Shown in pieces: positions 45,211 to 57,822 of a stretch of 57,822 bases of DNA (positions are counted from its first letter, which is position 1; each line of letters opens with the position of its first letter). Source of the DNA: Bdellovibrionales bacterium (GTDB lineage: Bacteria > Bdellovibrionota > Bdellovibrionia > Bdellovibrionales > UBA1609); the NCBI GenBank assembly GCA_013216195.1, contig JABSOQ010000006.1, positions 1-57,822 of the forward strand. The letters are read 5' to 3'. The notes under the pieces are model-generated. The model was not told where the DNA came from. It ran no database searches and was given only the letters and a program-made list of their open reading frames with translations. The position numbers were made by a program, and so were the translations under genes.

Positions 45211-45936
45211 TTACAAGGGGTGACGATTCAGCACTTGCAGCACGACTCTGCGGTTCTGGCCTTGGTTTTCGATGATGGGCTGGCCATCTTCGCCTCGGTG
45301 GGGCAGCTTAGGGCGAGTCTCTCCAAAACCGATGGTCATGATTTGATCTCTTCCGAAACCTTTTTGCTCGAATAGGCGCGCTACTGCACCGGCTCGAAGC
45401 GCTGAAAGCTCCCAGTTACTAGCAACTACACCTTTTTTTATTGGTACGTCATCAGTGTGACCTTCAATTAAGAACTTTTTGTCGCCTGCATTTACATCGA
45501 GTATGCCGACAATCTCTTTCATGAGAGATGTGGCATTGTCTTTCAATGCTATCGAGCCAGAATCAAAAAACAGGGTACCTTTAAAAATGAGTTTAATCCC
45601 CGTCTTCTTCACAACAGTCTCAACTTGGTCCTCGAGGCCTTTTTCTTTGATAACCGCATCGATCTTTTTTGCAAGCTTCTTGTAGGGCTCTTCAACCTCG
45701 CCTTTAAAGTACTTGGCGGTTTGATCGCCGACGTCTGCAAATTTTTGCTCATCAAAGTTTGCCATTGAAGTCATGAGAGCAAAGAACCCCATAAGAAGAG
45801 TCATCAAATCAGCGTAGCTGATTAGCCAGATGCCCTCTGAATCTTCGTGTCCACCCGAATGGCCTTCATCAAAGTCGATGAGCCCGTGCTCTTCGCTTTC
45901 TTCTCCAACCATGTCTAAGGGGTTTGCGTCGCTCAT
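45211..45936 (-). CDS. motB: Stator subunit MotB (OmpA-like peptidoglycan-binding domain)
   Basis: WLISYADLMTLLMGFF with the essential Asp; LFFDSGS, EGHTDD, NWELSALRA, NRRV. Confidence 0.93.
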   Translation of the reverse strand: MSDANPLDMVGEESEEHGLIDFDEGHSGGHEDSEGIWLISYADLMTLLMGFFALMTSMANFDEQKFADVGDQTAKYFKGEVEEPYKKLAKKIDAVIKEKGLEDQVETVVKKTGIKLIFKGTLFFDSGSIALKDNATSLMKEIVGILDVNAGDKKFLIEGHTDDVPIKKGVVASNWELSALRAGAVARLFEQKGFGRDQIMTIGFGETRPKLPHRGEDGQPIIENQGQNRRVVLQVLNRHPL

Positions 45937-45948
45937 AAATTATTCCTG

Positions 45949-46761
45949 TTAAGCTGCTTCTGCTTGTTCTGCAGATTCAGAACTTTGGTCAACTAAATCT
46001 CTCTCAGAAGGAAGAAGGTAACTTTTGATATTTTCTTCTACGAGAAGAGGGTGCTTTTTTAATCGAATCAGTTTGATTCCGTCGATCACCATTGATCTGA
46101 CTGTTTTATCTGTTCTGTTGTGTTTGGCCAGATTCTCACCAAGTGGGATCAAGATAAAGTTCGCAAATGCGATACCGTACATTGTTGCCACAAGAGCAAC
46201 AGCCATAGCAGGACCAACACCTTTAATGGCATCAGCACCACCTAGACTCTGCATGAGCGCGATCATTCCAACCACTGCACCGAGGAGACCAAAGGCAGGG
46301 GGGAACTTGGCGAGGGTGTTGAACACGTTTGAATCTTCTTCATAACGCTTAAAGTGAGTTTGAGCTCTCTTCATTAAAATGGTGTCAATGTCCCCCGCAC
46401 TCAGACCACCTTGCACCATGAGTTCAACTGCTTCTCTAAGAAAGTGAGTTTTGATCTCGGGTAGCTTTGTTTCCAGATAGTTAGGATCCTCACGGTAACC
46501 GCGTGATAAGTCTACAATTTCAGCGATAACTGATTGATAGACTGGGGTTGTTCCTCGAATCACTCTGGTTATGATCACACGAAGCATGGAGATCATTTTA
46601 CCGAATGAAAAACTAGTGAGTGCAGCCGCAAGAGTTCCACCAATCACAATCATAAAGGCGTGATAGTCTAAGAAGACGGACATATCCTTTACTGATGTTG
46701 CCATAGTCGCAATCAGTACAGTAATCGCAAGGGTGATACCTGTAATAGATGAGTAATTCAC
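45949..46761 (-). CDS. motA: Stator subunit MotA
   Basis: IVIGGT, PAFGLLGAVVGMI, GPAMAVALVATMYG..P; GTG start with GGAGG RBS. Confidence 0.93.
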   Translation of the reverse strand: MNYSSITGITLAITVLIATMATSVKDMSVFLDYHAFMIVIGGTLAAALTSFSFGKMISMLRVIITRVIRGTTPVYQSVIAEIVDLSRGYREDPNYLETKLPEIKTHFLREAVELMVQGGLSAGDIDTILMKRAQTHFKRYEEDSNVFNTLAKFPPAFGLLGAVVGMIALMQSLGGADAIKGVGPAMAVALVATMYGIAFANFILIPLGENLAKHNRTDKTVRSMVIDGIKLIRLKKHPLLVEENIKSYLLPSERDLVDQSSESAEQAEAA

Positions 46762-46780
46762 AATTCATCCTCCTAAAGTC

Positions 46781-46807
46781 TTATCGGCCTTCAAAATGAA
46801 CCATCGA
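46781..46807 (-). promoter_or_regulatory. Putative sigma28 promoter of motAB
   Basis: TCGA-N15-GCCGATAA on the - strand (perfect -10, weak -35), immediately upstream of the motA RBS. Confidence 0.55.
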
Positions 46808-46919
46808 GTCCAGAACTGGCTATGACAAGGGTCTAGGAGATCAGGATCCTCGGCCAGCTCTCACAACTTTGAAGTCTGGTCGAGGTGTTACGCCCCGCAA
46901 TTTGATGTAACCTTACTAT

Positions 46920-48308
46920 ATGGAGATAGAAAACCAAAAGCCTGTTCCTATGAATCTCGATGCCATTGAAATGTCTGGTGATCAGAAGGAGTGGTACGTT
47001 TACCGAGACGACAAACACTTTGGGCCCTTCAGTGTAAAGTGGATCCAGGAGTTTCTTGAGGCTGGAGCTCTAAGCCGAGAGCATTTCATTTGGAGACCCG
47101 GTCTGCAAGACTGGAAGTCGATTGAGCACTTTGAAAACTTTCGAGCTTATCTGAATGATCAAAGCCAACAGGCGATGTCAGATCTCGATTTCGAAAATAT
47201 GTTAAGAGTCGAAGACTACCGAGAGAGAGAGTTGGGTTCGCCAACTCACCCAATTCGCTGGGGTGCTCAGATCACTGAGCCTTTGCTTGAGTCAATGAGT
47301 CCGACTCAAATTCGAATTGGCTGGAACCGCTTTCATGCCGCTGTTCAAAATGGAGCTAGAACCTTTGGTTCGTGGTCTATCAAAAGCAAACTCCTGGCGG
47401 CAGTCGTGGGTATTGCGGCTATCGGAGCCCTGAACTTGAGCCTTATGGACTTCCAGTTCACGCCTCAAGAAAGAGCAATCTACGAGGCCATGAATCAGAA
47501 GTCACAAAACCTTGCGGATCAGATCTTAGATGAGGGCGAGGCGATGGCAGGTGTTTTGCCTTCACTACAGCCTTCAGAGTTCGTTATCGTCACTAATGAG
47601 ACGATGATGTCGAACAAGTTTGAGATCACTCTTGAAGGTGTGACAGGCACTCTTGTGGGTATACCCAATTTTCGCACTCGCCTTGAGATCGAGAACGGCA
47701 CAGCCCTTCATAAATTCTCTAATGCCGGTGTCTCTCTAGACCCTTTGCCTCCAGGTCAGTACTTTTTGAAGTGGAAGTGTTTAGATTGCGGGGAGGCGAA
47801 CCCACTCGTTGGCGAGTCAGCTGTATCTCAACTGTTCTTCGTAGACAAAGGCCTTTATAGGCAAAAACTCAAAGCCTACGAGGGGTCATATTTGGCTCAA
47901 GCCGGGCTTGAAAAAGATGAGCTCAAGCAGCTACACGCGGCTCTCCAGCAGCATTTTGATTTTACAATTGGTGAGTTTTCTCGAATTAACAAATTCTCTG
48001 GAGAACGACGTCGCAACCTTTGGGGCTTGCACACGCCTGAATGGCAAAAAGATCAGGGAGAATTTAAAAAGATATTCTCAAGCTTAGCCGATCCTCAGTT
48101 TTTGAATCAGCTTGTCTATAGAGACATCTATCAAGAGCTTGGTCGAGTCAGTGAAGACATTGGAAGACTGCAGTACCTGCAATCTCGTGTTTTCCAGAAT
48201 GAATCTGTTAATGAACTTTCTCAGGCATCATTACTTAGTGACAAGCTGCAAAAGCGACTTACGAAGTTGAGGTCTGAGGTTATGGGGTTAGACAGGAAGT
48301 CTAACTGA
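46920..48308 (+). CDS. GYF_2 (DUF4339) domain membrane protein
   Basis: WYVYRDDKHFGPFS..I..FL..G.LS....IWRPGLQDWKSI is the GYF_2 signature; one TM (LLAAVVGIAAIGALNLSLM); C-terminal Ig-like and helical region. Confidence 0.8.
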   Translation: MEIENQKPVPMNLDAIEMSGDQKEWYVYRDDKHFGPFSVKWIQEFLEAGALSREHFIWRPGLQDWKSIEHFENFRAYLNDQSQQAMSDLDFENMLRVEDYRERELGSPTHPIRWGAQITEPLLESMSPTQIRIGWNRFHAAVQNGARTFGSWSIKSKLLAAVVGIAAIGALNLSLMDFQFTPQERAIYEAMNQKSQNLADQILDEGEAMAGVLPSLQPSEFVIVTNETMMSNKFEITLEGVTGTLVGIPNFRTRLEIENGTALHKFSNAGVSLDPLPPGQYFLKWKCLDCGEANPLVGESAVSQLFFVDKGLYRQKLKAYEGSYLAQAGLEKDELKQLHAALQQHFDFTIGEFSRINKFSGERRRNLWGLHTPEWQKDQGEFKKIFSSLADPQFLNQLVYRDIYQELGRVSEDIGRLQYLQSRVFQNESVNELSQASLLSDKLQKRLTKLRSEVMGLDRKSN

Positions 48309-48352
48309 ACAATTGATGTTTTAGCCTAACGTCGCAATCTGGCACACGTGCA

Positions 48353-48380
48353 TAAAGTGTCAGAATGAAACGACCGATGC
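48353..48380 (+). promoter_or_regulatory. Putative sigma28 promoter
   Basis: TAAAGTGT...ACCGATGC (TAAA-N16-ACCGATGC) upstream of the AAGGA RBS and ATG 48409. Confidence 0.4.
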
Positions 48381-48408
48381 TAAAGAGTACAAATTGTTAA
48401 GGAAAGTC

Positions 48409-51400
48409 ATGGAAGATTCAAATTTCTCTAAAGAGAACGGCCGCAATAAAATTACAAATATCGCTCACGGTGAAGCCATCGAACGCAAACCAGAAGCCTC
48501 TTCTGAAGCGATAGAGAAGATCGACTTTGCAGGCGAGAACCTCTCATTCATGCAAAAAGAGATCGACAATCTGAAACAGATTAAGACTCAACTTGAGCAT
48601 CAGCGGGAGAGAGTGAGAACTGAGAACCAGAAACTCACACAATCACTAGCGACAGAGCGAAAAAAGGCTCGCGATCTTGTAGATCAATCTGAGAGATCTC
48701 TTTATAGAGTATTCGAATTAGAAGAAGAGCTCAAATCTACCAGCCATAGGCTGAAGTCTCTAAAAGAAGAGGCCCACCAAAAGCAAAACCAACTCGATCA
48801 GCTTCGAGTTGAACTTTCAGAAAACGAAGACCGGCTCTTGCAACTGCAAGGTGACAATGAGTCTCTGCAGTTGACTACAAACTCTCAACGTCAGCGCATT
48901 GTTGAGCTTGAGGCAGAGGTCATAGAGCTGCGGTCTGAGCAAAAAAGAGTCTCACAAGTTTTAGATGAGAAGATGGACGCCATTGAGCAAGAGAAAAGCT
49001 CTTCGAGTGTCGAGTTGTCACGCTTGACTCGTGAGGTGGAAGACAAAACGGCTGAGATCACAGCCTTTCGTGAGAGCGTGCAGTCAGAGAAACAACGCAC
49101 TCAAAAACTGAAAGATTTGGGCGAAAAGCAACAAGAGACCATTCAAGGCCTCGAGGAGCGCGTTGAGTTTCTGGGTGGTCAGTTGGATCGCTGGAAAAGT
49201 TACGGTGCTGAGCGTGATGATCTTATTGATAGCAAAGAGCGGGAGCTTGATGTCTTCAGACAAGAGATTGTCACTTTAAAAGAGCAGATCACTGATCAAA
49301 AGATGAGCTTCAAAAAAGCTTTGCAGACAGAGAAGTACTCACTTGAAGACAATCTTAGCTCAGCTCAAAAAGCACATGCTGAGATCGAATTTCGTTTTGC
49401 AAATGCCAAAGAGGCTTGGTTAGAAGAGAGTCGTAAGTTCCAAAAAGAAATTGAAGAAAAAGATGACCAAATTATTGGTCTCGAGCAGCGTGTTGCTTTC
49501 GATGCTGAGCGATTTGAAGCCAAGCTTGAATCAGTTCAGATCGACAATCAGCGAGAAAAAGAGCGATTGCAAGAGAGAATAGACAACTTGATTGCTCACA
49601 GAGATGAGGAGCTTAAGAAACTCGAAGACTCTTGGAGAGAAAAATCAGCTGGGCAACAGACCGAAGCCAAATCGAGACTTGAAGAGTTTAGAGAAAGCGC
49701 CAAGCGAGAAGCCGAAGAGAAATTACAAGATCTACGAACTCAGCTTGCAGAGGTTAAAGAGCACAACCGTTTACAGGTCGTTGGCTTGAAGCAGGAGAAT
49801 ATTGAAAAAATCAAACAGCTTGAAAGCGACTATGAGCAAAGGTTGGCTCAAGTTGAAGAAATTCGTCAAAAGCGAATTGAGGAGCTGTCTGAAGAACTGG
49901 CTGACACGAAAAGCCGTGTCGAGTCTGATCGAAGCGGGCTGGTTTCAGAGCTTGAAAAGTCAGCTGAGCAAAAAATCGCTCGCATTGAGAAAGAGGCCGC
50001 AACCACTATTAGCAGAATGAAGTCAGACTATGAGGAGCAGTTAAAAGAATCCGAGAATCAGGCTGCTAAGAGTTTGCAAAGAATCAAAGATGAGCAACGT
50101 GTCATCATTGAAGAGCTAAAGGCTCAGCACTTTGCCGCTCAAGAGAGAGCCAGGCAAGACCGCGCCGAGGCGATTGAAGTTCTGCAAAGTGAACACGCCC
50201 AGATTATTGAGAGCATAAAGGCAGAGCGCGATCAGAGCCTTAAAAACCTTACCGATGAGAAAGACGGCGAGATCAGACGCCTTACAGCTGAGCTTGAAGA
50301 AATTGAAGGCCGCGTTGGCGAGAAACTCTCACTTGAGATTCAGAACATGAAGCTTCGACATTCAGAAGCTATGGAAAAGGCTGAAAAACAGCATCAAAGC
50401 GAGATGCAAAGAGTGCGTGCTGAGCACTCTGAACGCTTTGCGGAGCTCGAGCGAGCGAGCACTGAGTCTATCAACCAGATTCAGCAAGAGCGTGATGAAA
50501 TCTTGAGTGAGCTAAAGGCTGAACATCAACATCAAATCGCCAGTCTGACTGAGACCTTTGAGCGCAAGATCTCTGAAGAAAGTGAAAAGTTTCAGGGCAT
50601 CAAGCAAGAGCTTCAGACCAAGTTGAATGAGGCAGTTTCTACTTCTAAAGTTGAAATCAATGGCGAAAAGGCGAGGCATGCTGAGATTGAGCGTGGGCTA
50701 ACAGACCAAATTCGTGATTTGAACTCAGAATTCGCAACAGAGCGAAATCTTGTCGTTCAGCTGAGAGAGCGAATTGAAGAATTGAAAGAAACGGTACGCT
50801 TCACCAATGAAAAATCAGAGAAGCAAATCGAAACATTGAATCAAAAGCTCCAGCAATCTTCTGAACGTGTTCTCGATTTGCGGGCAACCCTTAAAGATTC
50901 AGCTGCACAAGCTCTTCGCGAGCACGAAGTCGAAATTGCCGAGTTGAAAGAGTCTTACGATGCGAAAATTCGTGAGCAGCTTGAAGAAACTCACAGTGAG
51001 CGTGAAGCTATTGAGCAAGACAAGCGCAAGACGATTGGTAAGCTTCAAATGGAACTGAAGCAAGTGCGGCGTGAACTCGAAGAGAGCCGGGAGGCTTTCA
51101 AGCAATTTGAAGGCAGTGCCAACCTTCGCGATGAAACCAATACAGCCAAGATCAAAAATCTCAAAGAGCAGCACAATGCACTCATGGCTGAAAAGCGCGA
51201 GTTAGATAAAAGAGCCGCTGATCTGGGTGGGGAACTTGAAAAGGTAAAGAATCTGCACCGTGTTGCCAAAACTGAAATCAAAGACCTTGAGCAAAGAAAG
51301 CAGGAGTTCAAACAAAAAGCTGCAGAAGCCAGAGCTGAAGTAAAAGCCGCTGGTCAGCATATTGAAGCAGTTAAAAAGTCGCAGCAGGCGTTAGAAAATG

Positions 51401-52122
51401 AGATGAACTCTCGCGAAGAAGCTTCAGACAAGACTCAGGCTGATTTGAATAGAGTGATAGAGGCAAAAGCTTCAGAGATTGAGAAACACAAAGAAGATGC
51501 GGCTGAATTTAAGACTCGCATTGAGAGTTTGCAGGCTGAGATTCAAAAGCTCGAGGCCAGAGCTCGCGAGGCAGAAGAGTTGAGAGGCCAGCTAAGTGAA
51601 GCGAATGCCAAGGTTGCTGTGTTTGAGAAGCAATCTGATTCGCTTAAGGCTGGTTTAGTAAAGGTCGACAAAGAGCTAGACTCTCTATCTGATCAGAAGA
51701 AAGAGATGGAGCTGAATGAAATCAACATGAAGTCTGAGTTCGAGCGCTTAAAATCTCGTGAATCTCAAATGAGTCAGTTCACAAAGCAGCTCGATGAGCA
51801 AAAAGCAGAGCTCAAGAAGTTTGCAAAGCGTTTGGCCTATGAGATCAAGTCGTCTAAAGCTTTCCATCCGTTAAGGTCGTTGCTAAAGCTAACCGAAGCC
51901 GAGATCTCGAGCCTTGAGGTGAAACTTAGCAAAACAGCTCCTTTGGCTGTTGAAAGGGCGCCTCTCCAAGCACAGTTTGAAAAGCTTGTGCATCAGAGAG
52001 ACATGATTAAAAAGTCGATTGCCCAGTCAGAGATCGAGATTGAAAAACAGGCAAGGGACGTTGTGGCCCTAACCCAAAGGTCAGTCTTGGTGCCACTGCC
52101 ACCATTGCCACCTAAAAAATAG
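48409..52122 (+). CDS. Giant cytoplasmic coiled-coil protein with C-terminal proline-rich motif
   Basis: About 1237 aa, almost entirely E/K/Q/L/R-rich helical; no signal peptide, TM segment or Walker motifs; ends VPLPPLPPKK. Confidence 0.85.
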   Translation: MEDSNFSKENGRNKITNIAHGEAIERKPEASSEAIEKIDFAGENLSFMQKEIDNLKQIKTQLEHQRERVRTENQKLTQSLATERKKARDLVDQSERSLYRVFELEEELKSTSHRLKSLKEEAHQKQNQLDQLRVELSENEDRLLQLQGDNESLQLTTNSQRQRIVELEAEVIELRSEQKRVSQVLDEKMDAIEQEKSSSSVELSRLTREVEDKTAEITAFRESVQSEKQRTQKLKDLGEKQQETIQGLEERVEFLGGQLDRWKSYGAERDDLIDSKERELDVFRQEIVTLKEQITDQKMSFKKALQTEKYSLEDNLSSAQKAHAEIEFRFANAKEAWLEESRKFQKEIEEKDDQIIGLEQRVAFDAERFEAKLESVQIDNQREKERLQERIDNLIAHRDEELKKLEDSWREKSAGQQTEAKSRLEEFRESAKREAEEKLQDLRTQLAEVKEHNRLQVVGLKQENIEKIKQLESDYEQRLAQVEEIRQKRIEELSEELADTKSRVESDRSGLVSELEKSAEQKIARIEKEAATTISRMKSDYEEQLKESENQAAKSLQRIKDEQRVIIEELKAQHFAAQERARQDRAEAIEVLQSEHAQIIESIKAERDQSLKNLTDEKDGEIRRLTAELEEIEGRVGEKLSLEIQNMKLRHSEAMEKAEKQHQSEMQRVRAEHSERFAELERASTESINQIQQERDEILSELKAEHQHQIASLTETFERKISEESEKFQGIKQELQTKLNEAVSTSKVEINGEKARHAEIERGLTDQIRDLNSEFATERNLVVQLRERIEELKETVRFTNEKSEKQIETLNQKLQQSSERVLDLRATLKDSAAQALREHEVEIAELKESYDAKIREQLEETHSEREAIEQDKRKTIGKLQMELKQVRRELEESREAFKQFEGSANLRDETNTAKIKNLKEQHNALMAEKRELDKRAADLGGELEKVKNLHRVAKTEIKDLEQRKQEFKQKAAEARAEVKAAGQHIEAVKKSQQALENEMNSREEASDKTQADLNRVIEAKASEIEKHKEDAAEFKTRIESLQAEIQKLEARAREAEELRGQLSEANAKVAVFEKQSDSLKAGLVKVDKELDSLSDQKKEMELNEINMKSEFERLKSRESQMSQFTKQLDEQKAELKKFAKRLAYEIKSSKAFHPLRSLLKLTEAEISSLEVKLSKTAPLAVERAPLQAQFEKLVHQRDMIKKSIAQSEIEIEKQARDVVALTQRSVLVPLPPLPPKK

Positions 52123-52160
52123 TCGAGTTCATAATAAAAGATGACTAACAGTAGGTCGTG

Positions 52161-52188
52161 CCTGAGCCCTTCCAAGGGCCAGGTTTAT
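52161..52188 (+). terminator. Possible terminator after the coiled-coil gene
   Basis: CCTG-A-GCCCT / AGGGC-CAGG hairpin followed by TTTAT. Confidence 0.35.
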
Positions 52189-52242
52189 GGGGCCTAGGTC
52201 TTGAAGTGGCCCGACCATGGCCTAAATTCACAGCCGTTTGTA

Positions 52243-52269
52243 TTAAGACTAGCCTAGCCTCGCCGATAG
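52243..52269 (+). promoter_or_regulatory. Putative sigma28 promoter
   Basis: TTAA-N15-GCCGATAG, ending 7 nt before ATG 52277. Confidence 0.55.
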
Positions 52270-52276
52270 CATGGGT

Positions 52277-53215
52277 ATGAAAACTCATCAGAAGTCTTGG
52301 TACACTTTAGTTTGGTTTCCGGTAGTTCTCTCGTTAGTGGGGTGTTCAACGATATTGGCACCTTTTACTCCTGAGGAATCACCTTATGGTTTTTATCCTC
52401 CAGGGGTTGACCCTAGAAATGCGAGGTCTGTTCCTGCAGATATTGCACAAGACATTCAGTCAATATCTGAAGAGGGCGTTATCTATAGGTTTAAAAAAGA
52501 AGAAAGAGAAGAGCTGGTGAAGCCAAAAGCACCTTTGGCACAAGCTGCTGAAGAGGCTAAAGAGCCTGTTGGAGAGCCAGTTCTTGAAGTCGAAAAAGAG
52601 CCCGGACCACTTGCTGGAAGTGCTGGGCCCTTGGCCTCTCGAAAGCGAGTTGAGACCTCAGGGCCTCTACAGAAGAGATCGCGAGTGAAATTGCGGTCTC
52701 CAGGGTCTAAGGGTGGTAAGACTATCAACTACGTCGTGAAACAGGGTGACACGTTGATGGAGATCTCTTTTGACAAACACGGCGACTACCTAAGATGGCG
52801 TGAGATCTATCGTGACAACAGAAACAAGATGACTCATTGGACGAAAATGAACGTCGGCACTGTTCTCACTATCAATAACGTCAAGTACGTCTACATTCAA
52901 AAGAATGGTAAGCCTTACTTCATTCAAAAGGGTGACACTTTGAAATCTATTGCCCAGAAGCTGTATGGTTCGCCATTAATGTGGAAGGCCTTGTGGAAGA
53001 ACAACCCTCAGTTGATTCGAAAACCAAACAAGCTTTATGCAGGCTTCACTCTTTACTATCAACCTAAAGGCAAGCAGCAAAACGCTCCAGAGGCGAGAAC
53101 ACCAACTAGCCAAGGTGTGCTTCAGAAGCAAATTGTGAAAGAGGATCCAGTGGGATCAACTGCAAATTCGGCAACAGAAATTCTGAAAGAAGAGTTTCAA
53201 TCGACAGACCAGTAG
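52277..53215 (+). CDS. Lipoprotein with two LysM peptidoglycan-binding domains
   Basis: Lipobox LVG-C; YVVKQGDTLMEIS...WREIY..N and YFIQKGDTLKSIA..LYG...W..LW..N; alternative start 52271. Confidence 0.88.
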   Translation: MKTHQKSWYTLVWFPVVLSLVGCSTILAPFTPEESPYGFYPPGVDPRNARSVPADIAQDIQSISEEGVIYRFKKEEREELVKPKAPLAQAAEEAKEPVGEPVLEVEKEPGPLAGSAGPLASRKRVETSGPLQKRSRVKLRSPGSKGGKTINYVVKQGDTLMEISFDKHGDYLRWREIYRDNRNKMTHWTKMNVGTVLTINNVKYVYIQKNGKPYFIQKGDTLKSIAQKLYGSPLMWKALWKNNPQLIRKPNKLYAGFTLYYQPKGKQQNAPEARTPTSQGVLQKQIVKEDPVGSTANSATEILKEEFQSTDQ

Positions 53216-53338
53216 GCTGCAAGTGGTTTTCTAGAGTGCCCAAACGTCTAGTTTGGGTGCTGGCAGAATTGCCTCTTCGAAAGCCGTGAGAGCCAATAAC
53301 CCTTTGGAATTTCTGTGAATTTCTGAGATGCTTAAAGC

Positions 53339-54415
53339 ATGTCTGCGTTTAGGTACAGTCTCGCTTTTTTGTTCATCACTTTGAGCCTTTTTTCTGCAGC
53401 GGGCATTTGTGAAGAGGAAACCGATGTCACGGTTCGAGATGAAAAAGAAAGAGCGCTCTGGGTTGGCTATGTCTTTCGCAGAGAAGATCAGGGGCCAAGG
53501 GTAAAAGACTTAGACATCCCCGTAACACGCACCCCTGTCTATTTGGTTCCGCATGGTCAAATCGTAAGACCCCTAGTGAATATAAAAGTAACTCACCCTC
53601 TCGGCGAAGGGCGCACTCTGTTTGTGAATGGTGTGAAACTTAATACTGAGCAAAAGCCTGGTACTGAGCTGCAACGGGGCTCTCTTTACGTTTACTTAAA
53701 TTCTACGATCAGTGATATTCGAGTAGAGCTGAAGAACGCAGAAAGTAAGGTCGTGGAGAGCGAGTCGATCTACGTGTTTGCACCAGAGGCCAGAGGGCTT
53801 CAGGTGACCTCACCGTTTCGCTCTTTGTTCTTTAAGGTGGGAACAGCTTGGCTATTCTACGGGCAATCAAGTTACGGAACCTTTTCTGCCAATTCGCTCT
53901 CTCTTGGTTTGCATTATCAATCGCCAGAGCGCGGCCAGACCTGGGGTTTGCTGGGCGATGCCGATTTGACTTTGTTTACCTATGACTCTTCTCCAGAAGA
54001 TCTCAACCCACAGTTTTACGAGGCGATATTTGGGGTTACAAAGAAGAGTCAATTGATCAAGTCACCACTTTGGCGGAGCCGTTGGGTTTTTGCTGCGAAC
54101 ACTGTTGGGGTAGTGGCTTTTGGTAGCCCATTTGGTTTTAGTGGTTTATATGGCCCAACTGTAGGTTACAAAACAGAGTACTACTTGAACAACAAGAGTA
54201 GCCTCGGCTTTGATTTTTACTACACACTCTACTCAGAGTTAGCGATCACTTTTCAAGATGATCGCACCTACGAACTTGAGGGTTCGTTTCATTATAGAAC
54301 AGACACTCTCAATCAGTATGTGTTCAATGTCTCATATTCGAACAGTGAGTTCGCCGCGGGCAGTGAGCGAATTGAGCTCGAACTGCTGTTATTCTCATTT
54401 GAGTTCAGTCTCTAA
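53339..54415 (+). CDS. Putative outer-membrane beta-barrel protein with N-terminal Ig-like domain
   Basis: Signal peptide; C-terminal ~200 aa of alternating aromatic/polar strands ending LFSFEFSL (beta-signal-like). Confidence 0.62.
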   Translation: MSAFRYSLAFLFITLSLFSAAGICEEETDVTVRDEKERALWVGYVFRREDQGPRVKDLDIPVTRTPVYLVPHGQIVRPLVNIKVTHPLGEGRTLFVNGVKLNTEQKPGTELQRGSLYVYLNSTISDIRVELKNAESKVVESESIYVFAPEARGLQVTSPFRSLFFKVGTAWLFYGQSSYGTFSANSLSLGLHYQSPERGQTWGLLGDADLTLFTYDSSPEDLNPQFYEAIFGVTKKSQLIKSPLWRSRWVFAANTVGVVAFGSPFGFSGLYGPTVGYKTEYYLNNKSSLGFDFYYTLYSELAITFQDDRTYELEGSFHYRTDTLNQYVFNVSYSNSEFAAGSERIELELLLFSFEFSL

Positions 54416-54551
54416 CTGAGCTTTCAAAAACTGATTAAAATCTTTAGATATTTCTCAGACTGAAACGTTTCGAGCTTTATAGAAATCGCTCTTAAGTCGA
54501 TAAGATTATTGGAAGAAAGTAGTTAAACCAGAACGTTAGTTGGGATCTGAT

Positions 54552-57500
54552 ATGGGATCAAAAAATGCCATTACAAATTTTTTGAGTATAACAATGAACA
54601 AGAAGTTCACGCTTGCTGCGTTGCTTATTGTTCAGGTTTCGTTAACTGGTTGTTTGCCAGAAGACGAAGCTTTACCATCCAGCTCGGGTGATGCCACCGT
54701 AAGGTACACCGGCTTTGAAGGTTTGGAGTCTGTAGAGACACTCTCTGCCACAAAGTTAAAACTCCGCTGGACGGCTTCTACCAACCCAAATGTTGTGGGC
54801 TACAACATCTACGACACGACCTTGTTCTCTCTTCCAAGACTGGTCAAAACTGTCAATGCTGGCCGCAGTGAGGCAACACTTGCTGGCTTGTCTGAAGGTT
54901 TCTTCTACAACTTCCGAGTACGCGCAATCGATTCAAACGGAGTCGAAGACAGCAACATGAACGATCTCGTCGGTATCCCATACGACGGTATGACAGATGT
55001 TACAGTTTTGAGCAGTACCTCTGCTCGAGTCACATTTAGCTCAGTGCCTGAGAGTGAAGCCTCTGAGGTGAACATTTACTGTAAGTCTGATTCGCAGCCA
55101 GAGTTCACAAGATTTGCTAATATCCGAAACCTCACCCTTAGCAGTTTTGATCTTACAGGCTTGGTGGCAAGCGAAACTTACACTTGTAAAGCCTTGGTAA
55201 CTGTTGATGGCAGTGAAGACTCAAACCAAAACGAATTCACTTTTGTGCCATTAGGGCAAGCCGATTCAATTGCCTTTTCAGCTCAGCCTGGCAATGCAGC
55301 GGCTGGTGATCTTCTTACCACTCAACCAGTAGTTGAGATCTTAGACAGCAATGGTAACCGAGTCACTGGTGGTCCAGACTCCTCAGCTCTGATCACGTTG
55401 ATCATCTCACCTGATTCGCCATCGATTGGTGCTGTTCAAGGAACATTTGCAGTCAACGCCGTACAAGGTGTTGCCACCTTTTCTGATCTGAATATTCGTG
55501 AAGCCGGTATAAAAATCTTGAGAGCTGTTAAGTCTGACACTTCAAGTGAGGTGTTCGGTACGGCAATTATGAACGTTGACTCAGGTACATTCAATATAAC
55601 GCCTGGTAACGTTTCGGCGGCACTTTCTTCAGTAACAATCGACCCAGCTGTTCCTCCAGCAGACCCTTTAATTGCGAATGGTCTCGATGCCTACACGGTT
55701 AATATTGCTCTGAGAGATGAGTTTGGAAACGCAGTACAGGGCACTACACCTCAATTTGCCACCAACATAGTTGGTGATTTTATGATTCAACCCTTCTTGC
55801 CAACAGACGATAATGGCCAGACCTCAGGTTCGTTGTCGACTACGGTTGCCGACACGACTCCGGCTCGTATTTTGAATCTAGTGTCTCCGGCTGGTCTGAC
55901 ATCAGTTCAAGTTCTAGCTCCGTTCCAGCCAGGTCCAGCTTCTAGATTAGCTTTTAGCCGTCAGCCTACAAACTCGCCAGCTGGTGAGCTTGCGATGGCA
56001 GAGGTTCGCGTGAGTGTACAAGATGCACAGGGTAACTTGATTACCACAGGCTCAGATGCAAGCTCTGTCATTGCGCTTGCAATCGCTTCAAACGTCGGTG
56101 GTGCAGTACTTTCAGGTACAGTTTCTAAAAACGCAGTCAACGGCGAAGCGGTTTTTAATGACCTGGGTATCGACATCACAGATACAGGTTACCGATTGGT
56201 GGCAAGTTCAGGTGCCCTTACACCAGCATTCTCAAATAGTTTTAATGTCACTGCTGGTATTCCACGAGTCATTGCCATTTTCGGAGATGACTCTGTGCTT
56301 TCTGGTGATTGTAGCGATGCCATTACGATTCAGTTGCAAGATCTGGGTGGTAACCCAGCAGCAGCGCTTTCGAACACCACTGTGCAGCTGAGTGGTTTAA
56401 GTAACGCCAACTTTTACACAAGCAGTACCTGTGGCGGTACTCCAGTTAGTAGCAATATCACTTTCACGCCAGGTACGAGTACGAGAACTTACTATCTTCG
56501 TGGAGTGCCGGTTGAGCAGTTGAGTATTCTTGGTGAAGACGCCTCGTCGGTTCTGACTGATGGTAACTTCACAGTGAACGTGAGCCCGAACAAAATGGCG
56601 ATCTCCGCTTTGATGCCTAGCCCGCCGGCAGCTCCAGGTACATCTTTGAGTGTTCCAGCAGGTCAGTGTTCGAGCAGAATCACCATCACGCCGCTTGCAG
56701 ATGATGGAACACCGGGACCAGTTTCAGAGTCTATCGGCGTTTTGCTAAACGGTGTTGTAGGTTCACAAGCCCGCTTTTACTCTGACCCTAGTTGTACAAC
56801 AGAGATTGACCCAGGAGACTTTGAGCTGCAGCAAAACCCTGCACCCAATGTTGAGACGGTGCTTTATTTGATGGATCCGCGCGGTGAAACACTAAATGTG
56901 AATGTTGCAGATCCTGACGGTGAGATCACTACGACCTCTCTGCCTCAAGAGATTATCGTGACGGCTTCAAACATCGATCTCAGTGGTCCATCAACAGTTG
57001 TGGCAGGTCAATGTTCTTCGGCTTTCCAGATTCAACTGTTAGATACGCTTAGTAATCTTGTGCCGACGTCAGGCAACTTGAGTTTGCAAATCAATGGTGT
57101 CAATGGTGTTTCAACTACTGGTCAGTTCTACACTTCACCTGCATGCTCGGGCGCGCCAAGTAATAGTGCGACGATCGTGCCTGATGCTTCAAGCTCAATT
57201 AGCATTTACTTTAGAGGTTTTCAGGCTGAGGTGCTTGGCATTTCAATTGAAGACCCTGCTGGAAACCTAATTGAGTCGCAGACCATAGATTTAACAGTGT
57301 CACCTTCGGCCTTAACGATCTCAGGGCCTGGTGGAGTGAGCTCAGACAGCAGTGAGTGCTCGGGGCCATTCGATATTCAGCCTCTTGATGGTGTGGGATC
57401 GGTAGCAAACGCAGTGACTCCAATCGAAGTGAACCTGACGGGAGTGGGTATCGCTGGTGGCTTCTACGTCGACAACGATTGCGAAACACTGACCACAGCC

Positions 57501-57822
57501 GTGACTATCGCACCAGGAACAAATGTAGAGCAGGTCTACTTCTTGGGCCAGTATCCAGATACACTCAATCTAACTGCATCAGATGCAAACGCTGTGTTAA
57601 CAGCTGCAATATTGCCGTGGAATGTGCTAGCAGACTGGAGCTGGTTAGGTACCTCATCGACCCTGTTTGATGATAACGGTGACCCTTTGGGTTTCATAAC
57701 GGGCGAGCGACAAGTTGCCGCTGCATTTGATGGTATTCGTGGTGGTATTCAGGTCGAAATGTCAGATGATGGCAACTACCTTTATGTTGCCGAGTTAAAT
57801 CGCCACCGGGTCACAAAATTTG
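54552..57822 (+). CDS. Giant surface lipoprotein (FN3 x2, invasin/Big-like Ig domains, Cys-paired Ig repeats, start of NHL beta-propeller); 3'-truncated by the window
   Basis: Absent from the ORF track, consistent with no stop before the window end; the frame was checked by hand at the start, at several internal points and at the end. M(54552 or 54594)..VSLTG-C lipobox; LRWTAS..GYNIY..GL..GFFYNFRVRAID (FN3); GVATFSDL (Big-like); ends GNYLYVAELNRHRVTKF (NHL). Confidence 0.85.
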   Translation, partial: MGSKNAITNFLSITMNKKFTLAALLIVQVSLTGCLPEDEALPSSSGDATVRYTGFEGLESVETLSATKLKLRWTASTNPNVVGYNIYDTTLFSLPRLVKTVNAGRSEATLAGLSEGFFYNFRVRAIDSNGVEDSNMNDLVGIPYDGMTDVTVLSSTSARVTFSSVPESEASEVNIYCKSDSQPEFTRFANIRNLTLSSFDLTGLVASETYTCKALVTVDGSEDSNQNEFTFVPLGQADSIAFSAQPGNAAAGDLLTTQPVVEILDSNGNRVTGGPDSSALITLIISPDSPSIGAVQGTFAVNAVQGVATFSDLNIREAGIKILRAVKSDTSSEVFGTAIMNVDSGTFNITPGNVSAALSSVTIDPAVPPADPLIANGLDAYTVNIALRDEFGNAVQGTTPQFATNIVGDFMIQPFLPTDDNGQTSGSLSTTVADTTPARILNLVSPAGLTSVQVLAPFQPGPASRLAFSRQPTNSPAGELAMAEVRVSVQDAQGNLITTGSDASSVIALAIASNVGGAVLSGTVSKNAVNGEAVFNDLGIDITDTGYRLVASSGALTPAFSNSFNVTAGIPRVIAIFGDDSVLSGDCSDAITIQLQDLGGNPAAALSNTTVQLSGLSNANFYTSSTCGGTPVSSNITFTPGTSTRTYYLRGVPVEQLSILGEDASSVLTDGNFTVNVSPNKMAISALMPSPPAAPGTSLSVPAGQCSSRITITPLADDGTPGPVSESIGVLLNGVVGSQARFYSDPSCTTEIDPGDFELQQNPAPNVETVLYLMDPRGETLNVNVADPDGEITTTSLPQEIIVTASNIDLSGPSTVVAGQCSSAFQIQLLDTLSNLVPTSGNLSLQINGVNGVSTTGQFYTSPACSGAPSNSATIVPDASSSISIYFRGFQAEVLGISIEDPAGNLIESQTIDLTVSPSALTISGPGGVSSDSSECSGPFDIQPLDGVGSVANAVTPIEVNLTGVGIAGGFYVDNDCETLTTAVTIAPGTNVEQVYFLGQYPDTLNLTASDANAVLTAAILPWNVLADWSWLGTSSTLFDDNGDPLGFITGERQVAAAFDGIRGGIQVEMSDDGNYLYVAELNRHRVTKF
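56290..57620 (+). repeat. Four ~115-aa Cys-paired repeats (xxCS...FYxxxxC)
   Basis: GDCS/FYTSSTC, GQCS/FYSDPSC, GQCS/FYTSPAC, SECS/FYVDNDC; first Cys codons at 56310, 56667, 57012 and 57357. Confidence 0.75.

Follow-up and report, generated by a model that had tools for sequence, protein, structure and literature searches.

Motors of the MotA/ExbB superfamily are used outside the flagellum in the Zorya (ZorAB), Tol-Pal (TolQR) and Ton (ExbBD) systems. In the Bacteroidota, the peptidoglycan-spanning 5:2 motor GldLM of the gliding/T9SS machinery moves very large adhesins by way of outer-membrane components. The Agl-Glt gliding system of Myxococcus xanthus (AglRQS, GltJ, AglZ, Glt barrels, CglB) is driven by a TolQR-type motor, and PMC11135422 reports experiments in which the GYF domain of GltJ binds the proline-rich sequence of the AglZ coiled coil. 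For Bdellovibrio, passages of the 2026 review PMC13689555 describe three motAB pairs that drive one propeller; there, as in passages of the review PMC11323537, all motAB pairs of Bdellovibrio and similar bacteria are taken to serve the flagellum. Here, we analysed a motAB locus of a Bdellovibrionales bacterium lying within a stretch of 57,822 nucleotides (the window), which a preliminary description had proposed as a possible Agl-Glt-like machine for adhesion, prey attachment or surface motility. We find it fairly likely that this locus is one end of a non-flagellar stator-rotor envelope machine that acts on giant lipoproteins in surface movement or attachment.

Results

A flagellar-type stator is encoded beside a set of envelope genes

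All seven genes listed in the preliminary description are present as open reading frames at the stated positions (Table 1), and, as it had claimed, none of the other 36 open reading frames of at least 100 aa in the window matched a flagellar or chemotaxis family (E ≤ 1e-5). The only other motility-related match in the window is a PilZ protein at 2026-2709.

Table 1 Features of the motAB locus in the window
Feature	Position	Strand	Description and evidence
motB	45211-45936	-	241 aa; MotB_plug 52.6 bits, OmpA 62 bits (Pfam)
motA	45949-46761	-	270 aa; MotA_ExbB 74 bits (Pfam)
motA/GYF divergent intergenic region	46762-46919	no strand	158 bp
GYF membrane protein	46920-48308	+	462 aa; GYF_2 40.8 bits (Pfam)
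Coiled-coil protein, cytoplasmic	48394-52122	+	1242 aa; C-terminus PLPPLPPKK
PLPPLPP motif, coiled-coil C-terminus	52093-52113	+	PPxPP conservation among orthologues
LysM lipoprotein, peptidoglycan binder	52271-53215	+	314 aa; lipobox LVGC; LysM 29.6 bits (Pfam)
Outer-membrane protein	53339-54415	+	358 aa; AlphaFold model and Foldseek
ADH giant lipoprotein	54540-57821	+	>1094 aa, gene cut by contig end; lipobox LTGC; fn3 39.9 bits

MotA displayed four hydrophobic transmembrane helices in a hydropathy scan, and its ten PDB matches (E ≤ 1e-3) are all flagellar MotA or PomA chains aligned over the full length (best 6ysf_E, 8e-29, residues 8-265), with no GldL- or GldM-type chain among them. MotB comprises a plug, a transmembrane helix and an OmpA-like peptidoglycan-binding domain; from its sequence, we take the Asp of the helix motif SYADLMT to be the conserved channel residue. 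Its top NCBIfam match is MotD (132 bits, under the cut-off of the model). The MotA_ExbB family has 17 matches in the genome, including separate TolQR- and ExbBD-like genes, and a second, PomA-like stator scores 254 bits against PomA, versus 100 bits for the MotA of the window. Both tree and profile scores place the window-type MotA in a clade apart from this PomA-like stator, which bears out the preliminary interpretation on this point. No sigma-70-like site was found in the motA/GYF intergenic region, and the scanned region as a whole gave seven such sites versus 11.9 expected.

The GYF protein is a bitopic inner-membrane protein, with a cytoplasmic GYF_2 domain (residues ~25-71), a single hydrophobic helix (153-171, hydropathy scan) and a periplasmic part of ~290 aa in which a Cys pair is conserved (24 orthologues aligned). 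The best PDB match of its profile is the GYF domain of GltJ/AgmX (7z3c_A, 1.2e-11). The adjacent coiled coil showed no hydrophobic segment in the hydropathy scan, and its NCBIfam matches are SMC/Rad50-like coiled coils only, all far under the cut-offs. Its orthologues (501-1350 aa) always adjoin the GYF gene, and 20 of the 22, from four families, carry PPxPP at or near the C-terminus, with P74, P75, P77 and P78 invariant in a 19-row alignment of the tails. By analogy with GltJ and AglZ, the PLPPLPP motif is a probable candidate ligand of the GYF domain, and at the level of domains the resemblance noted earlier holds.

Against NCBIfam LysM, the LysM lipoprotein scored 54.9 bits over two matched stretches, and its orthologues were recovered in related loci (E 1e-36 to 1e-72). 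The 358-aa protein carries a signal peptide and had no Pfam, NCBIfam or PDB match by sequence. An AlphaFold2 model built on 24 sequences (pLDDT 84.9) displayed a periplasmic beta-sandwich (41-147) and a 10-stranded beta-barrel (163-357); Foldseek returned 53 matches at E ≤ 1e-3, and all the matches listed are outer-membrane barrels, those closest in size being OpcA and Pla, each with 10 strands (TMt 0.50-0.52), in support of the barrel proposed at this position. ADH, which probably begins with the ATG codon at 54594 (MNKKF...LTGC), had been described as an FN3/Ig/NHL protein: the fn3 assignment stands, Big_1 (Ig-like) falls slightly under the Pfam cut-off at 33.1 bits, and no NHL repeat was found by Pfam in the fragment present in the window, whereas NHL scored 50.8 bits in a full-length orthologue (locus L036). 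Full-length ADH orthologues range from 1924 to 1988 aa.

The seven genes belong to a conserved supercluster

The seven genes form the terminal part of a supercluster that comprises 12 or more genes and runs past the contig end. In relatives, ADH is followed by an FG-GAP lipoprotein of 1,095 aa, an FN3 lipoprotein of ~2,300 aa and a TPR lipoprotein, then by a FliG-like membrane protein of ~600 aa and by p247, a small protein of the outer membrane (~220 aa). The arrangement of motAB and GYF is not due to chance, because the GYF gene adjoins motAB in 12 of 12 MotA-orthologue loci (named MAGs; MotA identity 58-67%), divergently in eight and, in four, co-directionally with motAB upstream of GYF. 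The genes for the GYF protein, coiled coil, LysM lipoprotein, barrel and ADH share one order across four families. At three loci (L065, L067 and L083), motAB is not beside GYF, yet lies elsewhere within the same supercluster. In support of the preliminary interpretation, the neighbourhood is kept: linkage of the motAB module survives inversions and translocations in four or more families within the order, as well as in other families of the phylum.

The core of TPR, FliG-like, p247, MotA and MotB genes was complete or nearly so in ten of 15 further MotA loci, with no FliG-like gene nearby in four (L076, L078-L080); outside the order, motAB fell inside the examined stretch at six of 11 loci. 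In a sample of 200 other genomes of the order, 35 had a MotA match, 33 a FliG-like match and 32 both, with cut-offs (MotA ≥ 242 bits, FliG-like E ≤ 1e-47) chosen after the gaps in the score distributions had been seen. No FliG-like match passed the E ≤ 1e-47 cut-off in genomes G036, G030 and G192, although each has a high-scoring MotA.

A membrane-bound FliF-FliG-like fusion is the likely partner of the motor

The Agl-Glt-like core posited in the preliminary description was not sustained. Sequence profiles and structural models point instead to the ~600-aa FliF(RBM3)-FliG membrane protein of the same supercluster as the likely partner of the motor; it had been missed because the stretch encoding it is off the contig of the window (contig C244 in this genome). 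The protein has a hydrophobic N-terminus, a periplasmic RBM3-like domain, a single transmembrane helix and, on the cytoplasmic side, a complete FliG with its N, M and C domains. Its assignment to FliG leans mainly on sequence profiles: a profile of six homologues matched only FliG in the PDB (6/6; best 1lkv, 5.9e-9), and the family HMM also matched the canonical FliG of the same genome (4.4e-14). With its AlphaFold model (pLDDT 84.0) as query, Foldseek placed 13 FliG chains and a FliF model within the first 14 ranks, and full-length FliG of intact C-rings aligned over 298-329 columns. With VIA-align, residues 31-168 matched the FliF RBM3/S-ring in 15 listed entries (Z 10.5-12.1; rmsd 2.3-2.9 Å in all but two), the next unrelated fold reaching Z ≤ 8.8. 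Residues 297-588 matched FliG residues 5-331 (Z 11.4-11.8), and residues 491-577 matched FliG_C of the MotAB-FliG complex 8ucs_H (Z 9.5, rmsd 2.0 Å), Z values below ~13 being possibly generic for helical folds. FliF RBM1, RBM2 and the beta-collar are missing; a disordered loop (84-106) presumably occupies the place of the collar.

Both positions of the torque-helix acidic pair are D or E in 83 of 91 family members. Among the FliG-contact residues to which the preliminary description had drawn attention, the MotA loop arginine matching this acidic pair was retained in all but one of the 21 paired genomes, and in G207, where it is lost, the second acid of the FliG-like protein is changed too. 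By contrast, the positions equivalent to PomA E96/E97 are non-acidic in the window-type MotA clade. The equivalent of FliG R281 is Met in 35 of the 91 family members (we assume this residue numbering for PomA and FliG). Because of these two departures, only half of the canonical stator-rotor charge pairing is kept.

These features bear on whether the motor needs to rotate anything. Ion flow could cause Ton/Tol-like conformational changes of the FliG-like and GYF proteins, and thereby export, exposure or tension of the three giant lipoproteins, or tethering of the outer membrane, without rotation or motility. Some 5:2 motors reportedly energise transport and envelope integrity, the cluster has two proteins that bind peptidoglycan, besides two barrels and three lipoproteins, and all three GYF_2 proteins of the genome adjoin 5:2-type motors, including TolQR-like ones. 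Nevertheless, a complete FliG fold, the acidic pair and a ring-building RBM3 exceed what a TonB-like transducer needs, and we regard such a system as unlikely.

The cluster persists in genomes in which flagellar markers were not found

The organism of the window is flagellated: its genome encodes FliG and FlhA, and eight matches to the flagellin family exceed the cut-off. FlhA was found in 168 of 201 genomes of the order, but in none of four genomes in genus g20 and none of four in g42. The cluster, with intact open reading frames, was found in six MAGs (G021, G166, G171, G177, G179 and G100), each 97-100% complete, in which neither FlhA nor flagellin was detected (flagellin 0/6, versus eight and seven matches in the controls G115 and G163). 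MotA and FliG-like genes had no internal stops in any of them. In five of the six, FliF (0/5), FliM/N (0/5) and the export gate were not found either, nor canonical FliG, the sole FliG_C match being the FliG-like gene itself; in G021, the MotA of the cluster is the only MotA match at E ≤ 1e-30. All six genomes fall into two genera within a single family, with MotAs that lie near one another on the tree, and may go back to one flagellar loss. Their gene content argues for the non-flagellar use suggested earlier.

The same data weigh on an accessory flagellar module, in which MotAB would serve the ordinary flagellum as an alternative stator, the TPR lipoprotein would form a stator scaffold, parking site or brake together with the barrels and the FliG-like protein, and the giant lipoproteins would be mere neighbours. 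MotA is flagellar-type over its whole length, the host is flagellated, and the passages of the two reviews mentioned above call such stators flagellar. Other polar motors use TPR proteins and discs as stator scaffolds. Moreover, the complete genome G085 (genus g59) has a distant MotAB pair (39% identity) ~4 kb from a member of the FliG-like family; if this pair is among the published Bdellovibrio pairs, such stators may feed the flagellum too. Against this, the whole cluster is intact in the six genomes, the linkage of GYF, coiled coil, LysM, barrel and giant genes is kept across families through rearrangements, and the window's genome has its separate PomA-like stator. Such an accessory module is quite improbable in our estimation, and the stator of the window may serve both its own machine and the flagellum in its flagellated host.

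We give little credence to a decaying motor relic left by flagellar loss: its parts have flagellar homologues and flagella are absent from some carriers, but the genes are intact, and the fusion architecture is kept in 185 cluster representatives (E ≤ 1e-30), recurs in 29 of 301 genomes drawn from across the phylum and also coexists with a complete flagellum in flagellated organisms, that of the window among them. A Zorya-like anti-phage defence is hardly credible, since weak ZorB matches from MotB (up to 58.5 bits) are outscored by flagellar MotB/MotD models, MotA has no ZorA match, PADLOC was blank for seven of nine proteins tested, its only other match being a weak JetC-like one from the coiled coil, and the cluster encodes no nuclease or helicase effector.

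Discussion

The cluster resembles the flagellar motor in its MotA and MotB and in a partner with the FliF RBM3 fold, full FliG N-M-C and the torque-helix acidic pair. It differs in fusing the RBM3-like domain and FliG in one polypeptide via a transmembrane helix, and in its linkage to the GYF, coiled-coil, LysM, barrel and giant lipoprotein genes. With Agl-Glt it shares an N-terminal cytoplasmic GYF domain in an inner-membrane protein, a long cytoplasmic coiled coil with a conserved proline motif, outer-membrane barrels, candidate lipoprotein adhesins and an ion motor as driver. However, its motor is MotAB-type (TolQ only 29 bits), its GYF protein is no GltJ equivalog (31.5 bits versus a 450-bit cut-off) and has no ZnR domain, its proline motif is C-terminal, its other genes gave no Glt family match, and Agl-Glt has no FliF/FliG-like protein. 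The likeness to GldLM is one of concept: no sequence relation was found, and the stator-rotor interface of the cluster is flagellar-type.

In the stator-rotor machine that we favour, the stator is predicted from sequence to consist of MotA5B2-type units in the inner membrane, anchored to peptidoglycan through the OmpA-like domain of MotB. The FliG-like protein would assemble through its RBM3-like domain as a ring, or at least as a membrane-embedded array, which the stators would turn or push. The GYF protein would recruit the coiled coil by its C-terminal PPxPP, as GltJ recruits AglZ, providing the machine with a platform in the cytoplasm or an element for positioning. Transmission of force through the periplasm might then involve the RBM3-like domain, the periplasmic part of the GYF protein and the TPR and LysM lipoproteins, and end at both barrels of the outer membrane (p247 and the 358-aa protein) and at the giant lipoproteins ADH (~1950 aa), FG-GAP (~1095 aa) and FN3 (~2300 aa).

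The preliminary interpretation is hence partly supported, adhesion, prey attachment or gliding being possible functions. The cluster is kept in relatives seemingly without a flagellum; therefore, its product is probably an undescribed envelope-spanning machine. Its output may be surface motility or attachment to prey or substrate, and most likely the giant proteins would be moved or tensioned at the cell surface to this end.

Composition of the motAB locus

ORF calls on the window, which is the entire contig C254 of a 4.1-Mb genome in 296 contigs, confirmed the seven genes that the preliminary description had placed at 45211..57822, as well as its claim that no other flagellar or chemotaxis gene lies in the window: none of the 36 further ORFs of at least 100 aa matched such a family (E<=1e-5). 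The motA product is a MotA_ExbB protein (Pfam) with four hydrophobic helices in a hydropathy scan, and its ten PDB matches were all MotA or PomA (10/10), aligned over residues 8-265 at 8e-29. MotB carries a plug (MotB_plug, 52.6 bits) and an OmpA-like domain (OmpA, 62 bits, Pfam), and its sequence includes an Asp within SYADLMT, which we take to be the channel Asp. Neither protein reached an NCBIfam equivalog cut-off: MotA scored at best 137 bits against the MotA, PomA and MotP models (cut-off of 341 bits for PomA), and MotB at best 132 bits versus 283 for MotD.

The 462-aa protein encoded next to motAB contains a GYF_2 domain (Pfam) and a single hydrophobic helix at residues 153-171, and therefore its GYF domain is predicted to be cytoplasmic. 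The same scan found no hydrophobic helix in the 1242-aa coiled coil. A LysM domain was found in the 314-aa lipoprotein (Pfam), and fn3 and Ig-like domains in the fragment (>1094 aa) of the giant lipoprotein ADH, which is cut by the contig end; both have lipoboxes. The 358-aa protein had no Pfam or NCBIfam match, and its sequence-profile search of the PDB returned nothing at E<=10. Its model (pLDDT 84.9) combines a beta-sandwich with 10 long strands and had 53 Foldseek matches at E<=1e-3, those listed being outer-membrane barrels throughout. A promoter and terminator scan of the region gave 7 promoter-like sites versus 11.9 expected. The 232-aa ORF downstream of motB was rejected as a member of the system, with no homologue in any fetched locus. 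Elsewhere in the window, the sole signalling- or motility-related gene encodes a PilZ-domain protein (227 aa, 47.6 bits), and a large Ig-like protein (1281 aa; Big_13, Glucodextran_B) adjoins a PD40 beta-propeller protein, with no link to the cluster found.

motAB belongs to a larger supercluster

The synteny that the preliminary description had singled out for checking held in relatives: the GYF gene adjoins motAB in 12/12 loci of named MAGs in which MotA was found (58-67% identity), being divergent from it in 8 and having motAB co-directional upstream in 4. The coiled coil, LysM, barrel and ADH genes follow in the same order in every MotA locus reaching far enough. This five-gene core, from GYF to ADH, is kept in the 19 loci examined, wherever the contig allows, and the complete ADH measures 1924-1988 aa in these loci. 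With the barrel as marker, the module is patchy, occurring in 21/201 genomes of the order (8/54, 4/26, 3/53 and 5/35 in families f1, f2, f10 and f12, respectively); it was not found in the same-genus genome G002 (96% complete).

In relatives, ADH is followed by genes for two giant lipoproteins (FG-GAP, ~1095 aa; FN3, ~2300 aa), a TPR lipoprotein of ~220 aa, a membrane protein of ~600 aa, referred to below as FliG-like, and p247, a small outer-membrane protein of ~220 aa. Fragments of both giants lie on contig C202 of the window's genome and the last three genes on contig C244 (table below). Because the downstream genes of relatives were thus found on these two contigs of the same genome, the window's cluster very probably continues past the contig end.

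Locations of the genes and loci discussed in the text
Feature	Location	Genome or family
TPR lipoprotein gene	C244:262-918	window's genome
FliG-like 596-aa protein gene	C244:915-2705	window's genome
p247 gene	C244:2626-3369	window's genome
T2SSE-family ATPase gene	C244:3576-4841 (-)	window's genome
PilZ-domain protein gene	window:2026-2709 (+)	window's genome
Large Ig-like protein gene and PD40 neighbour	window:24185-29791	window's genome
232-aa ORF downstream of motB	window:44306-45004	window's genome
Sites of the two other GYF_2 proteins	C33:7309-10271 and C13:30606-36153 (L057, L058)	window's genome (G000)
Soluble FliG_C-like protein gene	C154:2891-3658 (-)	window's genome (G000)
Paralogous motAB module	C46:7176-22425 (L055)	window's genome (G000)
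Fourth MotB/MotA pair	C68:17357-21645 (L056:13358-17646)	window's genome (G000)
Small GTPase genes	L049:2594-3184 and L050:4845-5435	f12
Second, divergent MotA/MotB pair	L071:478-2450	G188
Locus with distant MotAB and FliG-like genes	G085:C1:2909500-2929499 (L087)	G085 (genus g59)

The motAB pair is part of this supercluster: when not beside the GYF gene, it occupies another place within the cluster. It adjoins the TPR/600-aa/p247 genes or ADH in f12 loci and in genome G033 (L065, L067, L083), and two f10 loci (L051, L053) have the order TPR, 600-aa protein, p208, MotA, MotB, GYF. A shorter core of TPR, 600-aa protein, p247, MotA and MotB was complete or nearly so in 10/15 further loci with a MotA orthologue; in another, L085, motAB adjoins the TPR and 600-aa genes and p247 was not matched, and the other four (L076, L078-L080) had no 600-aa homologue at 1e-4. 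The two partners also co-occur across the 200 other genomes of the order, 35 having a MotA of at least 242 bits, 33 a member of the 600-aa family at E<=1e-47 and 32 both, with both cut-offs set after viewing gaps in the score lists. At these cut-offs, G036, G030 and G192 had a high-scoring MotA but no 600-aa family match, and G133 (91% complete, 260 contigs) had a family match without a MotA.

Outside the order, 29 of 301 sampled genomes of the phylum had a member of the FliG-like family. Among 11 loci of this kind, the TPR gene was adjacent in all 11 and p247 in 9, and the fetched stretch included motAB in 6 and GYF in 4. The family counts 185 members at E<=1e-30 among 1.84 billion representatives, and the sole name given to them by the source is 'hypothetical protein'. 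A sequence-profile search of the PDB with p247 returned nothing at E<=10.

Other genes were noted around these loci. At the module end on C244, a T2SSE-family ATPase gene (PilB/PilT-like, 421 aa) is convergent with p247. Just upstream of the GYF gene in two f12 loci lies a gene for a 196-aa Ras/Arf-like small GTPase, possibly MglA-like; it is flanked by recR and a class IV aminotransferase gene and may represent chance synteny. In G188, which has the orthologous motAB beside its FliG-like gene, a second MotA (345 aa)/MotB (310 aa) pair is divergent from ADH.

A predicted single chain of RBM3-like domain, transmembrane helix and FliG

As single sequences, the 600-aa proteins gave weak FliG_M and FliG_C matches. 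A six-sequence profile (A1, used for the PDB and genome searches and including as one of its six rows a 645-aa protein from contig C46) matched FliG only in the PDB (6/6), with T. maritima FliG_MC at 5.9e-9 over chain 3-221. The 91-sequence family HMM matched the genome's own canonical FliG at 4.4e-14, over the M and C domains and a segment of the N domain. The AlphaFold model (pLDDT 84.0) starts with a hydrophobic helix at the N-terminus, continues as a periplasmic alpha/beta domain (33-165), whose loop at 84-106 is disordered, and crosses the membrane once (TM helix, 180-211); a disordered linker then leads to a part made up of helices only (250-583).

Foldseek ranks 1-14 for this model included 13 FliG chains and one FliF model, and full-length FliG of the intact C-ring was among the matches, aligned over 298-329 columns. 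With VIA-align, residues 297-588 superposed on FliG 5-331 with Z 11.4-11.8; taken separately, the M domain aligned over 80/80 residues (rmsd 1.9 A) and the C domain over 88/89 residues (rmsd 2.1 A), and the C domain matched FliG_C from a MotAB-FliG complex, 8ucs_H, with Z 9.5 and rmsd 2.0 A. Profile, HMM and fold together place all three FliG domains, N, M and C, in the protein.

The periplasmic part (residues 31-168) matched the FliF RBM3/S-ring in 15 listed entries (VIA-align, Z 10.5-12.1), with rmsd of 2.3-2.9 A and 93-100 residues aligned in all but two of them. The next unrelated fold, OsmC/Ohr, scored clearly lower, with Z of 8.8 at most, as did other ring-building proteins (EscJ and the needle complex), with Z of about 8. 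At the sequence level, hhalign of this domain against the lineage's FliF gave a probability of only 3.3% (E 0.013, aligned to FliF 230-275), and its profile matched nothing among PDB sequences at E<=10. RBM1/RBM2 appear to be absent, with no Pfam match to YscJ_FliF, and the model, with a periplasmic part of only about 135 residues including the disordered loop, lacks the beta-collar of FliF. Because of the sequence profile, model, Foldseek and VIA-align results, the 600-aa protein is predicted to be a natural single chain joining an RBM3-like domain, a TM helix and a whole FliG. By contrast, known FliG is a soluble protein of ~330 aa, docked on the FliF C-terminus and on FliM, and the FliF MS-ring is built of about 33-34 subunits. 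The window's genome also encodes a 255-aa soluble protein (contig C154) in which a FliG_C-like domain (41.6 bits) is combined with a coiled coil at the C-terminus; it is distinct from both canonical FliG and the membrane-anchored family.

At the interface, two acidic torque-helix positions, which we take to be E. coli FliG D288 and D289, are each D/E in 83/91 family members. The position presumed to match R281 is R in the window's genome, and R or K in only 38/91 members. The loop Arg of MotA is kept in 20/21 genome-matched MotA/FliG-like pairs, the sole exception also having an altered second acid. We assigned the MotA loop positions as PomA R88/K89/E96/E97, assuming our E. coli and Vibrio equivalences; in the window's MotA the last three are E, K and L. 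Across the clade the acidic positions are not conserved; the loop alignments are uncertain. The canonical stator-rotor charge pairing appears, from these sequences, to be only half conserved.

The GYF protein and coiled coil as a proposed cytoplasmic platform

The best solved relative of the GYF profile was the GYF domain of GltJ/AgmX (7z3c_A, 1.2e-11). Each GYF gene is followed by a coiled-coil gene, whose product is very variable in length (501-1350 aa) and carries [VT]PP[LMPT]PP at or near its C-terminus in 20/22 cases, including a second pair in genome G021; the four motif prolines are invariant in a 19-row tail alignment. In the Myxococcus system, the GltJ GYF domain binds the proline-rich sequence of the AglZ coiled coil (ITC, NMR), an interaction needed for efficient focal-adhesion assembly (PMC11135422). 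The cluster's GYF protein is not a GltJ equivalog, scoring 31.5 bits versus a 450-bit cut-off for NCBIfam gliding_GltJ, over the GYF stretch only. GltJ itself consists of ZnR, GYF, TM helix and a TonB-C-like tail, and the likeness is confined to the GYF domain.

Each of the three GYF_2 proteins of the window's genome is encoded next to a motor of 5:2 type, which is TolQR-like for the two outside the window. One of these two genes adjoins TolQ-like and TolR-like genes and that of a 1013-aa YbgF-like TPR protein; near the other lie TolQ- and TolR-like genes and one for a GltG-like protein (276 bits).

The analogy with Myxococcus gliding drawn in the preliminary description thus stands for the GYF/coiled-coil platform and fails for the core. 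The motor is of MotAB type, not the TolQR type of AglRQS (the window's MotA scores 29.3 bits to TolQ versus 137 to PomA), and the core of the apparatus would be, from sequence and models, a stator with a FliF/FliG-like rotor. Likeness to Zorya, in which ZorA has a long cytoplasmic tail and acts with ZorC/D or other effectors, was rejected: seven of the nine cluster proteins tested, MotA among them, had no PADLOC match, the only ones being weak ZorB matches (MotB) and a weak JetC-like match (coiled coil).

The cluster persists in genomes without detected flagellar genes

A flagellar stator acts on the C-ring and is expected alongside a flagellum. The window's genome is itself flagellated, with FliG, FlhA and eight flagellin-family matches above cut-off, and it has four MotAB-type pairs, one of them PomA-like (254 bits to PomA versus 100 for the window's MotA). 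The PomA-like stator was dropped as a flagellar contrast: found in 29/201 genomes and in 0/53 of f10, it does not track flagella in the order.

FlhA was detected in 168/201 genomes of the order, and in 0/4 genomes of each of the genera g20 and g42. All four g20 genomes and two of g42 (G021, G166, G171, G177, G179 and G100; 97-100% complete) nevertheless carry the barrel, the MotA orthologue and the FliG-like gene, and their MotA orthologues are without internal stops (58-64% identity, 322-356 bits). Flagellin was found in 0/6 of these carriers, against 8 and 7 matches in the family controls G115 and G163. FliF and FliM/N were each found in 0/5 carriers, and canonical FliG in none of the five, whose sole FliG_C match was the FliG-like ORF; the sixth, G100, was covered by the FlhA and flagellin searches only. 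In G021, the cluster MotA is the single MotA match at E<=1e-30. The flagellum co-occurrence expected of a C-ring stator was therefore not observed. The six genomes, all MAGs, belong to two genera of one family and occupy neighbouring branches of a MotA tree built without outside reference sequences and with moderate clade support (81/63), and they therefore count as one or two independent observations, not six.

Related modules

In the window's genome, contig C46 holds a paralogous module. Its genes encode, in order, a TPR-like lipoprotein of 237 aa, a bitopic membrane protein of 645 aa, a protein of 235 aa, MotA and MotB; a 338-aa membrane protein and, on the other strand, a 3139-aa LamG/fn3 giant are also encoded there. 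Its MotA (263 aa) is the closest paralogue of the window's (5.7e-56). Likeness of the 645-aa protein to FliG is unsupported, because the family HMM did not match it (E>1). The fourth MotB/MotA pair, on C68, is divergent from genes for a TPR_19 protein of 187 aa and for two proteins without annotation (493 and 217 aa), possibly making this locus a third such module. In the complete genome G085, MotA (293 aa) and MotB (319 aa) genes are followed by those of a TPR protein, a small protein resembling OMPs and a FliG-like family member of 577 aa, whose Pfam scores for FliG_C and FliG_M exceed the cut-offs; this distant MotAB pair is about 4 kb away from the family member, and a VWA protein and a protein of >1653 aa are encoded upstream.

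Discussion

Comparative genomics strongly supports the central proposal of the preliminary description, in which a trans-envelope apparatus uses a repurposed flagellar-type stator. The cluster stator resembles MotAB/PomAB in its helices, its full-length alignment to solved stators and the plug and OmpA-like domain of MotB, and differs in its equivalog scores and in persisting where flagellar genes were not detected. The FliG-like protein shares with FliG its three domains and the acidic torque-helix pair, and probably the RBM3 ring-building fold with FliF.

Gene content, topology, homology and linkage are observed, as is the retention of the cluster in genomes lacking detected flagellar genes. 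Going further, we propose that peptidoglycan-anchored MotAB units would engage the FliG part of the single-chain protein, which might, through its RBM3-like domain, form a ring or array for the stators to turn or push. The GYF protein would dock the coiled coil as a cytoplasmic platform, and force might reach the two outer-membrane barrels and three giant lipoproteins, serving surface movement or attachment. A bolder reading, possible but somewhat doubtful, is that the system is a free-standing, non-flagellar rotary motor: a minimal FliF(RBM3)-FliG rotor ring turned by a flagellar-type MotAB. It would lack an export apparatus, rod, hook, filament and switch complex, and would transmit its rotation through the envelope to the giant lipoproteins for surface movement or prey gripping. 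Such a motor could be a reduced form derived from the flagellar motor, or a relative of a pre-flagellar rotor-stator pair that has survived.

Several points speak against a non-flagellar role: the half-conserved charge pairing, the three MotA genomes in which no partner was detected, the pair near a FliG-like member in G085, and the view in the literature. To our knowledge, FliG and FliF are known only as flagellar parts. The available text of two papers treats all motAB pairs of Bdellovibrio and relatives as flagellar stators (PMC13689555, PMC11323537), and in the literature searched flagellar-type MotAB is assumed to act on the flagellar C-ring only. Our full-text search returned no paper joining MotAB with a non-flagellar FliG-like protein, and the term GYF was absent from the papers listed in one such search. 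A 2025 survey of MotAB relatives places flagellar stators in one clade; its main text contains no 'GYF', and no description of the module was found in the passages covered.

If the proposal is true, a conserved stator and rotor-like pair surviving without detected flagellar genes would put the flagellar torque interface to a new use, and would form a new class among the ion-driven 5:2-motor machines (Ton, Tol, Agl-Glt, GldLM and Zorya). It would offer a simple natural rotor, encoded by one gene versus FliF + FliG + FliM/N, for the study of torque generation and motor origin; a pre-flagellar relative would, in addition, offer a living case in which to test ideas on the beginnings of the flagellar motor. 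Since the core of TPR, 600-aa protein, p247, MotA and MotB is present in some strains of the culturable genus g59 (as in G151, G176, G178 and G202), the idea is genetically testable. These findings also call for the multiple motAB pairs of predatory bacteria to be re-examined.
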